From the NCBI GenBank assembly GCA_943350765.1, contig CALRAJ010000002.1:7994-71993 (forward strand): a stretch of 64,000 nucleotides of DNA, read 5' to 3'. Positions 4,093 through 6,938 of the stretch are shown here, in pieces. Every line of letters starts with the position of its first letter. Positions within the stretch are counted from its first letter, which is position 1. The notes beneath the pieces are model-generated. The model searched no databases. It was not told the DNA's origin and saw only the letters and a list, made by a program, of their open reading frames with translations. The stretch comes from Candidatus Tayloriibacteriota bacterium. Lineage in GTDB: Bacteria; Patescibacteriota; Minisyncoccia; Phycocordibacterales; PALSA-1337. The position numbers and the translations under genes are program-made.

Positions 4093-5839
4093 TACCGTTC
4101 AGTAATTTCATCAGAAAGTGGTTCTCAGGTTGTTTTGTCCACCAGAGGTGTAGTAATGAAGCCAAAAAAGAGACTTTGGAGCCCATTTCTCCCACCAGAG
4201 GCGTAGAAGTAACCCTCTAAAAGGGGGTTCGCAGGCGGGTAGCCGAGACTTCAGGAATTTTCTAGTAAGAAAATATCCGTACCCTTTTAGAGGGTTTACT
4301 TCGTAACCCTTGACTATTATAACCATTCATATATACTACTCCTACCCTAATCGAAACAGGGGTGTTCTTTGAAACTGTGCCAAAATAAGTTATGCATTAA
4401 GAACGTAGTTTAAACGAAGTCGTTTAATACGTGCAAGTCCCTGTAAAGTATTCAACAAGCATATTTTACGGGTGAGTCTAAAAAGTTTAGGAAAGTAGAA
4501 TCTTCGCAGTCGGCGCCCTTCTTTGTTGCAAGCTCCGTTCGCTTCCGCAATGTATTAGTATACATTTTGGTCGCGATACTCGCTCGCGCCTCGAAGTGCA
4601 TCCAACTACAAAGATTCTATGACACACATTTATAACAATAATTTCAAGAGCATAGACAAACTCTAATACAAAGCTTCGGCGGAGTAGTAATTATTTGAAA
4701 ATCAAAGTATAGAATATTTTTCTTTATTTTGTTCCGTTCATTTAATTTAGAGTTTGATTCTAGCTCAGGATGAACGCTGGCGGCGTGGGTAAGGCATGCA
4801 AGTCAAACGGCCCGCAAGGGCAGTGGCGAACGAGGTAGTACAAAGTAGGTAACGACCCTGGAAGTCAGGAATAACTAGTCGAAAGATTAGCTAATACTTG
4901 ATGGTCTCGCGAGAGTAAAGATTTATCGCTTCCAGATCGGCCTGCTCGATATCAGCTAGTTGGTAGGGTAATGGCCTACCAAGGCAATGACGTCTAGGGG
5001 AGCTGAGAGGCTGACCCCCACCGATGGTACTGAGATACGGACCATACACCTACGGGTGGCCGCAGTCGAGAATCTTCCGCAATGGACGCAAGTCTGACGG
5101 AGCGACGCCGCGTGATCGATGAAGTTCTTCGGAACGTAAAGATCTTTTATGAGGGAGAAAGTTTATTGATAGTACCTCAAGAATAAGGGGTTGCTAAACT
5201 CGTGCCAGCAGCAGCGGTAATACGAGTGCCCCAAGCGTTATCCGGAATTATTGGGCGTAAAGGGTGTGTAGGTGGTTTTGTTAGTCTCTTGTTAAACCTC
5301 CCGGCTCAACCGGGAAGATGCAAGGGAAACGGCATAACTAGAGGATGCGAGGGGTCTGTGGAACTCATGGTGTAGCGGTGAAATGCGTTGATATCATGGG
5401 GAACACCAAAAGCGAAGGCAGCAGACTGGAGCACTCCTGACACTGAAACACGAAAGCGTGGGTAGCGAATGGGATTAGATACCCCAGTAGTCCACGCCCT
5501 AAACGATCTTCTCTGGTTTTTCGGAGTATCGACCCTCTGAGAGACGAAGCTAACGCGTTAAGAGAAGCGCCTGGGTAGTACGACCGCAAGGTTAAAACTC
5601 AAAGAAATAGACGGGGACTTGCACAAGCGGTGGATCATGTGGTTTAATTCGACGATAAACGAAGAACCTTACCAAGATTTGAAACCTAGTTGAAGACAAG
5701 AGGAAACTTTTGTCGCCGCAAGGCAATTAGGCAGGTGATGCATGGCCGTCGTCAGTTCGTGGTTTGAATTGTTCCCTTAAGTGGGGTAACGAACGCAACC
5801 CTCGTTGCCTGTTATATATGTCAGGCGAGACTGCCCTCG

Positions 5840-5969
5840 ATTTTGTTCGGGAGAACAAAATCGAGTCGAAAGTAGAAAGTCAAAAGTACACAGTCGGATG
5901 CAAGTGCATCCACTCGGTACTCAGTACTTTCGACTTTTGACTCCGATTTCGATCGCTCGTGATCAAAAT
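5840..5969 (+). other. About 130-nt insertion in the loop of 16S helix 40 (IVS/expansion-segment type)
   Basis: Lies between GAGACTGCCCTCG and CGAGGGAGGAAGGCGAGGATGACG, where E. coli has about 7 nt. The insert is a nested hairpin (CTCGATTTTGTTC/GAACAAAATCGAG; GGATGCA-AGT-GCATCC) and its ends pair (CTCGATTTTG ... CAAAATCGAG). Confidence 0.6.
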
Positions 5970-6198
5970 CGAGGGAGGAAGGCGAGGATGACGCCAGGTC
6001 AGCATGTCCCTCTGATATCTTGGGCTACACACGTGATACAATGCCCGGTACAACAGGTTGCAATACCGCAAGGTGGAGCCAATCCTTATAAGCCGGGCCC
6101 AGTTCGGATTGAAGTCTGCAACTCGACTTCATGAAGCCGGAATCGCTAGTAATCGCAGGTCAGCTATACTGCGGTGAATACGTTCTCAAGTCTTGTAC

Positions 6199-6615
6199 TC
6201 AAAATTAAAAGCGCCAGGCAGGTGCTGAATCTAGGTTGTTAAAATCAACCCTTTCCGAATACAATACAGGAGAGTAGTGAACGGGTAATCATTTGGTCGC
6301 GAGGCTAAGTGATGAAGGATCCTAGTAGCAAAAAGCAGCCCATTCAAAAAAGAGGGATACGACCCATATGGTGAGTTATGGGGAAGTATCGCAAATAACC
6401 TCGAATGGGATGCATGGAATAGAATCAGTACTGACCCTTGGGAGATCTCCTGATATGAAAAACAATCGAAGTATCAGTAGAAGTCAGCTGCGTCGTAGTA
6501 CCCATTTTTTATGATGGGGAAGGACAAAACCGATAGTGTTAAAACTATTGGACTCGCGTAGTGCGGGAAATCCGCTCGCTACGTGGGAACGCAAAATGTT
6601 GTTTCATTATTGCAA
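6199..6615 (+). other. About 415-nt ORF-less insertion in the 16S decoding-centre region (putative self-splicing intron)
   Basis: Interrupts the universally conserved CTTGTAC|ACACCGCCCGTCA block (E. coli about 1397-1400). No ORF over 60 aa; must be removed for a functional 16S. Boundaries are approximate. Confidence 0.5.
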
Positions 6616-6938
6616 TCCGCCCGTCAACTCAAGGGAGTTGGGAATACCCGAAATCTCTGCCTAGCAGGGCCTAAGGTAAGCTCAATGACAGGGAGTAAGT
6701 CGTAACAAGGCACGGGTAGCGGAAGCTGCTCGTGGATTATTTCAATTTGAACACGGTGTACAGTTTCTTCGGAATCTGTATTACCTTAAATGGTCTTTTG
6801 TCATTATTTTGGTGATAGGGTAATGGTTCTGCAACCTCAAATGCGAACCCTCAGCCATGAGAGAGGAATGGCGCAGGTCGGTATCCTCTATAGAGATACT
6901 GACCGGTGAACGGAACAAAATAAAGAATGATATTAAAG

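Follow-up and report, generated by a model that had tools for sequence, protein, structure and literature searches.

The gene described here, for 16S ribosomal RNA (rRNA), is interrupted at two places, once at the tip of helix 40 (h40) and once in the strand that lines the decoding site, and the question that it raises is what these two insertions are and what becomes of them in the RNA. The gene lies in a stretch of 64,000 nt that was analysed as a whole and is called the window (contig CALRAJ010000002.1, positions 7,994-71,993, forward strand; all coordinates below are window positions), and it is that of a Paceibacteria-type bacterium of the Candidate Phyla Radiation (CPR, or Patescibacteria). 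Our answer, to which we give a probability of about 0.85, is that the decoding-centre insertion is a group II intron with a IIC-type backbone and without an open reading frame (ORF), a member of the family known from 16S positions ~1396-1400 of CPR bacteria and giant sulfur bacteria, and that the h40 insertion is an unrelated, lineage-specific addition to the tip of a helix. Both kinds of insertion have already been described for CPR bacteria, and the window is a clearly resolved, ordinary example of them.

The bacterial small-subunit (SSU) model of Rfam (SSU_rRNA_bacteria, RF00177) matched the gene with 1255.6 bits, model position 1 falling on 4742. Its 3' part (6617-6734) corresponded in the local alignment to model positions 1390-1520, running through helices h44 and h45, and the end at 6747 was set by eye, through alignment of GGAUUAUUUCAAUU to the 3' tail of the Escherichia coli molecule. 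A first-pass annotation, made from the sequence alone, had recognised a CPR-type 16S gene at 4749-6745: the gene and its affiliation were right, and the span becomes about 4742-6747. That annotation had also described two discrete insertions, and the local SSU alignments do show exactly two large interruptions instead of expansions distributed along the gene. The spacing outside the insertions, which it had taken to be that of E. coli, is not E. coli-like everywhere because several small deletions, visible as gaps in the SSU alignment, shorten the core to ~1460 nt, below the length of E. coli 16S. The three frames which it had called artefacts inside the rRNA (5365-5589, 5805-6134 and 5880-6071) exist and have no Pfam match. 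E. coli 16S numbers are our own, counted from the 1392-1406 universal primer site, and the coordinates of all features are collected in Table 1.

At the decoding centre, 418 nt separate CTTGTAC, which ends at 6198, from CCGCCCGTCA, which starts at 6617 (model position 1390), and the insert folds better than shuffled sequence (z = -5.5). The sole intron model that matched it was RF01998, which describes domains 2 and 3 of group II introns (domains are abbreviated D1 to D6 below): the match covers 6447-6525 with 39.6 bits (gathering score 35), and the same model reaches 58.1 bits in a sister form of the intron (related locus L017). A scan of one genome per species with the query AGAAGTCAGC...CCGCCCGTCA gave 14 16S genes of CPR bacteria in which a homologous insertion, also ORF-less, occupies the same position, in hosts annotated as Nomurabacteria, Zambryskiibacteria, Azambacteria, Kaiserbacteria, Saccharibacteria, Uhrbacteria, Andersenbacteria and others. 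Twelve of these homologues, all full length, were aligned for structure, and RNAalifold returned a D1 closing helix followed by D2, D3, D4, D5 and D6. On this consensus fold 96.3% of the cells are paired, a share that drops to 37-42% on sliding the 3' partners by 1-3 columns; compensatory changes on both sides of the helix are found in 69 of the 92 pairs, against 22-29 in the slid controls; and none of 500 shuffles reached the observed values of pairing or covariation. Another set of pairs proposed by the program, 22-24/512-514, which joins the GYG of the intron to CGC of the exon, was discarded as spurious, both sides being invariant or nearly so. The insert is a compact ORF-less group II intron with a IIC-like backbone: the first-pass annotation had seen an ORF-less intron of a self-splicing type correctly, and group II takes the place of the group I assignment that it had put forward.

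The details of the catalytic domains agree with this class. D5 carries a CGC triad (6555-6557), a G6556.U6584 wobble, a UC bulge on its 3' strand (6576-6577), an upper stem of 4 bp and the loop GAAAU, that is GAAA plus one base. In D6 a bulged A6609 is followed by UUGC and AAU, so that it stands 7 nt ahead of the 3' splice site, and the intron ends in AU; this geometry is kept in 9 of the 12 aligned sequences. Two hallmarks of IIC introns were seen, the single A (A6552) at the junction between D4 and D5 (J4/5) and the 5'-terminal linker. The crystallised IIC intron of Oceanobacillus iheyensis, which is ~400 nt long and ORF-less with the same CGC triad in D5, presumably also comes very close to the window's intron in D2-D3 (AGAAGUCAGC...UAGUA...GAAGG) and in its 5' GUGUGCCCGGCA. 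The O. iheyensis intron targets terminator hairpins, has the canonical G1 at its splice site and derives from an intron encoding a reverse transcriptase.

Where exactly the intron begins and ends is given by its pairing with the exon. The terminal loop of the D1d stem has the invariant sequence GGUGAGU, whose UGAGU, the exon-binding site 1 (EBS1), is complementary to ACUCA, the intron-binding site 1 (IBS1) in the exon; because of this pairing the 5' splice site lies after 6201, and because of the geometry of D6 the 3' splice site lies after 6616. Since UCA (6199-6201) belongs to the exon, as 16S 1396-1398, the intron is 6202-6616. The bounds of 6199-6615 in the first-pass annotation described a discrete insert of ~415 nt rightly and placed its start 3 nt too early. 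The site is A1398/C1399, and the ligated product is therefore predicted to read GUACUCA followed by CCGCCCGUCA.

Relatives from metagenomes show the same pairing and, in one case, its compensation. A metagenome scan with the D5 sequence found at least 120 loci; among the matches listed, to which all counts of metagenomic relatives refer, 95 retained both exon flanks. All 95 have the intron at the window's 16S site, and in 94 of them UCA follows UUGUAC. The only bearer of ACA (L076) has UGUGU in its EBS1 loop, which compensates for ACACA. The 3' exon of this locus continues CCGCCCGTCACACCATGGGAGT and is less CPR-like in appearance, and the intron family may thus extend beyond typical CPR hosts. 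The distance from UCA to the GYG is 9 nt in 65 of the 72 relatives that could be scored. A 5' splice site at the GYG itself was considered and discarded, since 7-11 bases without conservation would then stay behind in the decoding centre and since the partner of EBS1 is ACUCA.

A sister form of the intron (family B: L007, L008 and L017) uses a different register. Its EBS1 loop GAGUAC matches GUACUC, and GAGUG or GGAUG stands right at the junction in L017 and L007, with no linker, the 5' end of L008 being less clear; the 3' exon begins one base earlier, at A1398, and the bulged A of L017 lies 7 nt before this shifted junction. In a third subgroup, GUGAG probably matches CUCAC with the junction one base later, a less secure reading. 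Three forms can be set side by side (L007:729-1234(-), L008:7336-7863(-) and L017:3082-3598(-); L068, L110, L159 and others): a linker-less one at 1397/1398, that of the window at 1398/1399 and one probably at 1399/1400, with the EBS1 loops GAGUAC, UGAGU and GUGAG, respectively. The loop differs with the junction, and the register of exon binding is thus shifted together with the site.

An intron that divides the strand lining the decoding site has to leave the RNA, and from its anatomy this one is probably removed by self-splicing with ligation of the exons. EBS1 would pair with the last five exon bases and so place the 5' splice site in the active site of D5, while the 7-nt linker that separates the splice site from the degenerate GUGYG would loop out. 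The first step would be carried out by the bulged A6609 of D6 or by water, hydrolytic initiation being frequent in IIC introns and in introns with a linker (PMC4748821, PMC13190283), and the subsequent ligation would restore the continuous 16S sequence predicted above. A variant of this scheme is that the ribozyme cuts at both junctions and, because of its 5' linker, ligates poorly or never, leaving a mature 16S that is split, with a separate h44-h45 piece of ~130 nt. Fragmented rRNAs do exist, 5' linkers are tied to loss of branching and hydrolytic initiation in several mitochondrial families (PMC13190283), and IIC introns mostly do not branch in vitro (PMC4748821); however, in known group II introns a hydrolytic first step still ends in exon ligation, the conservation of the EBS1-IBS1 pairing, of the bulged A with its 7 nt and of the AU 3' end argues for selection on a complete second step, and a nick at 1398/1399 would fall in the track where mRNA and tRNA are decoded, all of which makes a permanently split 16S very unlikely. 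A group I intron, although these are the commonest rRNA introns in CPR (PMC11270868) and often occur in conserved cores like this one, is hardly credible, since the Rfam intron models, proposed as a check by the first-pass annotation, gave no group I match in the window at E<=10 and a group II match above its gathering score, and since the fold supported by covariation is D1-D6, with the D5 triad hairpin and the D6 bulged A, and not P1-P9.

Several observations weigh against the intron as we describe it. It starts with AAAUUAA and not with GUGYG, and because this 7-base linker precedes the counterpart of GUGYG, the canonical G1 stands away from the splice site. The Rfam model for D5-D6 (RF00029) matched neither the window nor L017, even at E<=10; this silence is a problem of model sensitivity and not evidence of absence. 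A clear bulged A in D6 is absent in 3 of the 12 aligned relatives. No base of the D1d internal loop was seen to vary with the first base of the 3' exon across the subfamilies, as EBS3 would, and neither EBS3 nor a tetraloop receptor nor any other tertiary contact was established.

Why the window's intron has no ORF can be read from its relatives. The lengths of their introns fall into two groups, 401-543 nt and about 790-960 nt, and some lie between these; 60 of the 95 have in D4 an open frame whose product resembles LAGLIDADG endonucleases with a single motif, and two representative frames match Pfam LAGLIDADG_1 with E = 3e-16 and 4e-21. The alignment of the ORF-bearing relatives breaks between query positions 337 and 343, which are 6535-6541, in the loop of D4. 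The D4 of the window has no LAGLIDADG ORF, and the only ORF of its intron (48 aa) has no Pfam match. Since so many relatives carry the endonuclease frame in D4, the window has the ORF-less minimal form, and we infer that this form is derived: the ancestor would have carried in D4 a gene for a single-motif LAGLIDADG homing endonuclease that gave it mobility at the DNA level, the gene would have been lost in the lineage of the window while D4 shrank to a hairpin of 22 nt, and the intron would remain as an immobile passenger that still must splice. In eleven introns the length is intermediate and no ORF was detected, and these resemble stages of such a decay.

Introns of this kind have been published from two sides. 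In CPR bacteria, Tsurumaki 2024 (PMC11270868) counted, partial hits included, 53 'group II intron-like' 16S insertions, found only at position 1400 (16IS9), of which 39 have LAGLIDADG_1 ORFs, 14 are ORF-less and none has a reverse transcriptase; the family was considered mobile via DNA, by means of the homing endonuclease. The window's intron is the same as these in host group, site, partial match to an Rfam group II model, lack of reverse transcriptase and, for some of them, lack of an ORF, and it stands at the short end of their size range. The classes of that survey are based on Rfam matches only, with no domain structure, splice sites or EBS/IBS pairing in its text or supplement. From the other side, the rns-1396 family, known first from Thiomargarita (Salman et al. 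2012), is described in PMC13190283 with a IIC backbone and a single-motif LAGLIDADG homing endonuclease in domain IV. Its members all have a 5'-terminal linker, an A as linker between domains IV and V, no EBS2, and only IBS1 and IBS3, and they are listed from Thiotrichaceae only. The window shares with them the 16S ~1396 site, a backbone of IIC-like type, the A at J4/5 and the 5' linker, and its relatives, not the window itself, share the LAGLIDADG frame in D4. Compared by description and not by sequence, every checkable feature of rns-1396 is present in the window or its close relatives; unlike rns-1396, the window has a CPR host instead of a gammaproteobacterium and has apparently lost its ORF. 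The first-pass annotation had asked for confirmation of an ORF-less intron in the 1400 region; such an intron is not unusual, being the probably decayed form of a family already published with its LAGLIDADG ORFs (PMC11270868, PMC13190283).

Group II introns with LAGLIDADG ORFs are also known from mitochondrial rRNA genes (Li et al. 2011, as cited in PMC13190283; Mullineux et al. 2010, as cited in PMC11270868). As far as these citing papers describe them, the fungal and algal mitochondrial introns are like the present family in residing in rRNA genes, in having bases between the 5' exon and GUGYG, in lacking EBS2 and in homing at the DNA level; they are of class IIB1 and usually without the branch-point A, whereas the window's intron is IIC-like and keeps the bulged A, as do nine of the twelve aligned sequences. 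A survey of 2026 (PMC13011429) that relied on RF00029 as its single model recovered no group II intron from Patescibacteria, probably because this model misses the family.

Taken alone, the intron is of little weight, as one more ORF-less copy of a published decoding-centre group II family in CPR 16S genes: it adds one member to the class, and what we contribute is structural detail. The structure is given base by base, with splice sites and an exon pairing that shows compensatory changes, where the CPR survey had partial Rfam matches only. The failure of RF00029 to detect the family bears on the 2026 claim that group II introns are absent from Patescibacteria (PMC13011429), and the CPR host bears on the 2026 statement confining rns-1396 to Thiotrichaceae (PMC13190283). 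For 16S surveys, the intron at 1398/1399 falls within the universal primer site 1392-1406, and every amplicon across it becomes longer.

The other insertion, unrelated to the intron, is a single one of 129 nt in the loop of h40, at model positions 1159-1161 of the local SSU alignment, where insert-less relatives read CCCCCUCACGGGGG. The first-pass annotation had described it as a self-folding hairpin at the tip of the helix, and the element indeed folds into a rod (z = -8.6 against shuffled sequence). Two identical copies of the direct repeat CAAAATCGAG are possible partners of its 5' strand CTCGATTTTG (5836-5845): with the distal one the result is the nested rod of minimum free energy (MFE), at -70.8 to -71.8 kcal/mol, and with the proximal one the energy is -64.1 kcal/mol. 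When 5866-5973 is deleted in silico, a perfect 16-bp hairpin with a GGGA loop remains. The insertion would have arisen by addition of the 98-nt segment and one copy of the 10-nt repeat to an h40 hairpin that was already lengthened, which would give a rod of ~50 bp. The arms of the insert pair partly through G.U.

In ~30 related 16S genes for which the h40 region was recovered, insertions of 42-319 nt sit at the same tip; their sequences are all different, many consist of tandem short repeats, and the insert of the window is absent or different in all relatives. Two of these genes (L045 and L083) have the same layout with a duplicated strand, and the insertion of a third (L124), 319 nt long, contains an ORF of 85 aa for a GIY-YIG nuclease (Pfam E = 2.4e-17). 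A blast search with the insert of the window found no second copy in the 64 kb or in 181 related loci; its only matches were one of 26 nt in gatB and a weak one to the base of h40 in L083. In the former, 5862-5887 is identical at 25 of 26 bases to 52970-52995 of gatB (52377-53834, + strand; the codons for PESKGESQK), whereas 100 shuffles gave an expectation of none. Its first four bases, CGAG, are also those that end the proximal repeat, an arrangement resembling a microhomology junction. The GatB protein of the window is full-length against NCBIfam, which makes gatB the likelier donor.

As to the fate of the rod, its removal by RNase III, in the manner of a classical rRNA intervening sequence (IVS), seems slightly more likely than its retention. 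Like an IVS processed by this enzyme, it is a discrete insertion at a helix tip with a long duplex and a patchy distribution among close relatives. Classical IVSs occur mostly in helices 9, 25 and 45 of 23S rRNA; the one in the window differs by its place in h40 of 16S. Against cleavage speak the arms, whose G.U pairs and tandem repeats also occur in retained eukaryotic expansion segments. That the mature 16S keeps the insert, as an expansion segment of the bacterial small-subunit head, is a serious possibility, though somewhat short of an even chance. It stands at a helix tip, its arms combine G.U wobbles with tandem units of ~7 nt, as do expansion segments grown by slippage, and the insertions in the ~30 related genes imply a site that tolerates extra RNA; yet the near-continuous duplex is a good substrate for RNase III, comparable bacterial helix-tip insertions are cleaved, according to background cited in PMC11270868, and a role in the ribosome is not suggested by sequences that change so quickly.

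Two further accounts concern the origin of the rod. It may be a repair scar, which we consider unlikely: in this CPR clade the tip would be broken repeatedly, for example by a GIY-YIG endonuclease such as the one encoded by L124 at exactly the h40 tip, and mended through microhomology-mediated copying of DNA at hand, an event that would have left the 10-nt duplication and the 26 nt copied from the bacterium's own gatB, joined at the shared CGAG. If this were true, short rRNA insertions of CPR bacteria would start as filler DNA and turn, in later evolution, into a hairpin tolerated by the ribosome. An element resembling a miniature inverted-repeat transposable element (MITE), with a 10-bp target-site duplication, would explain the perfect 10-nt direct repeat on the flanks, the perfect hairpin restored by precise removal and the imperfectly inverted ends; it is nevertheless an improbable source, since the blast search recovered no second copy, only the 26 nt in gatB, and since arms that pair partly by G.U do not form an inverted repeat at the level of DNA. 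The h40 insert is, as a lineage-specific tip insertion, one more short insertion of the kind left unclassified in CPR surveys. The most unusual loose ends of the locus are its gatB-derived segment with the direct repeat and, in the intron, the one-base stepping of the site with a matching EBS1.

Table 1. Features of the interrupted 16S rRNA gene, in window positions, with the basis of each assignment
Feature	Position	Strand	Basis or remark
16S rRNA gene, including both insertions	about 4742-6747	+	Rfam RF00177 start; 3' tail aligned by eye
Exon 1 (16S 1 to ~1398)	4742-6201	+	Splice site from EBS1-IBS1 pairing
Whole enlarged helix 40, 143 nt (~14 nt in insert-less relatives)	5834-5976	+	Fold and relatives
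Extra sequence relative to the bacterial SSU model	about 5843-5970	+	Local cmscan alignment
Proximal direct repeat CAAAATCGAG, 10 nt	5856-5865	+	Can close the 16-bp hairpin with 5836-5845
98-nt insert between the repeat copies	5866-5963	+	Arms of ~7-nt units (UCGAAAG, UAGAAAG, UCAAAAG)
Distal direct repeat CAAAATCGAG, 10 nt	5964-5973	+	Pairs with 5836-5845 in the MFE fold
IBS1 ACUCA (16S 1394-1398, U at 1396)	6197-6201	+	Complementary to EBS1
Group II (IIC-like) intron, 415 nt, ORF-less	6202-6616	+	Rfam, homologue alignment, covariation-supported fold
5'-terminal linker AAAUUAA, variable, A-rich	6202-6208	+	Alignment of 12 homologues
AAGCG, degenerate counterpart of GUGYG	6209-6213	+	GYG conserved, first two positions vary
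Domain 1	6214-6441	+	Closing helix 6214-6218/6436-6441; helices 1-9 of the consensus fold
EBS1 UGAGU	6372-6376	+	Terminal loop of the D1d stem 6363-6368/6377-6382
Domain 2	6442-6485	+	Helix 10; in part covered by the RF01998 match 6447-6525
Domain 3	6492-6525	+	Helices 11-12 and RF01998
Domain 4, 22-nt hairpin	6530-6551	+	Helix 13; site of the LAGLIDADG ORF in relatives
J4/5, single A	6552	+	Coordinates of the consensus fold
Domain 5	6553-6587	+	Helix 14, 100% paired, 6 covarying pairs
Domain 6	6591-6613	+	Helix 15; pairing by eye, checked in 12 sequences
Exon 2 (16S 1399 to 3' end: h44, h45 and tail without CCUCC)	6617-6747	+	Rfam alignment and comparison of the 3' tail

Some features of the gene and its surroundings lie outside the two insertions. 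The 3' tail of the 16S (6734-6747) reads GGAUUAUUUCAAUU in place of GGAUCACCUCCUUA, and the anti-Shine-Dalgarno CCUCC is absent from it; the same absence was scored in 41 of 48 tails, those of 47 relatives and the window (e.g., L019, L028, L045 and L159). About 200 nt past the gene and ahead of a tRNA-Ile(GAT) gene (7327-7401), a G+C hairpin (CCGCC and GGCGG around a UGAAGG loop) followed by the T-run UUUUUU was seen by eye at 6945-6966; the consensus scan did not report it. The Rfam scan found no 23S rRNA gene in the 64-kb window, and given this the rRNA genes appear to be unlinked. Finally, the closest relatives (L003, L028, L045 and L054) have further large 16S insertions of about 770-1355 nt at other sites, which correspond to ~5204, 5481 and 6704 of the window and are empty there; in L003 these insertions lie between 6071 and 4716 and between 3596 and 2788 of its own coordinates. 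Sets of insertions therefore differ among genomes whose 16S sequences are ~88-90% identical.

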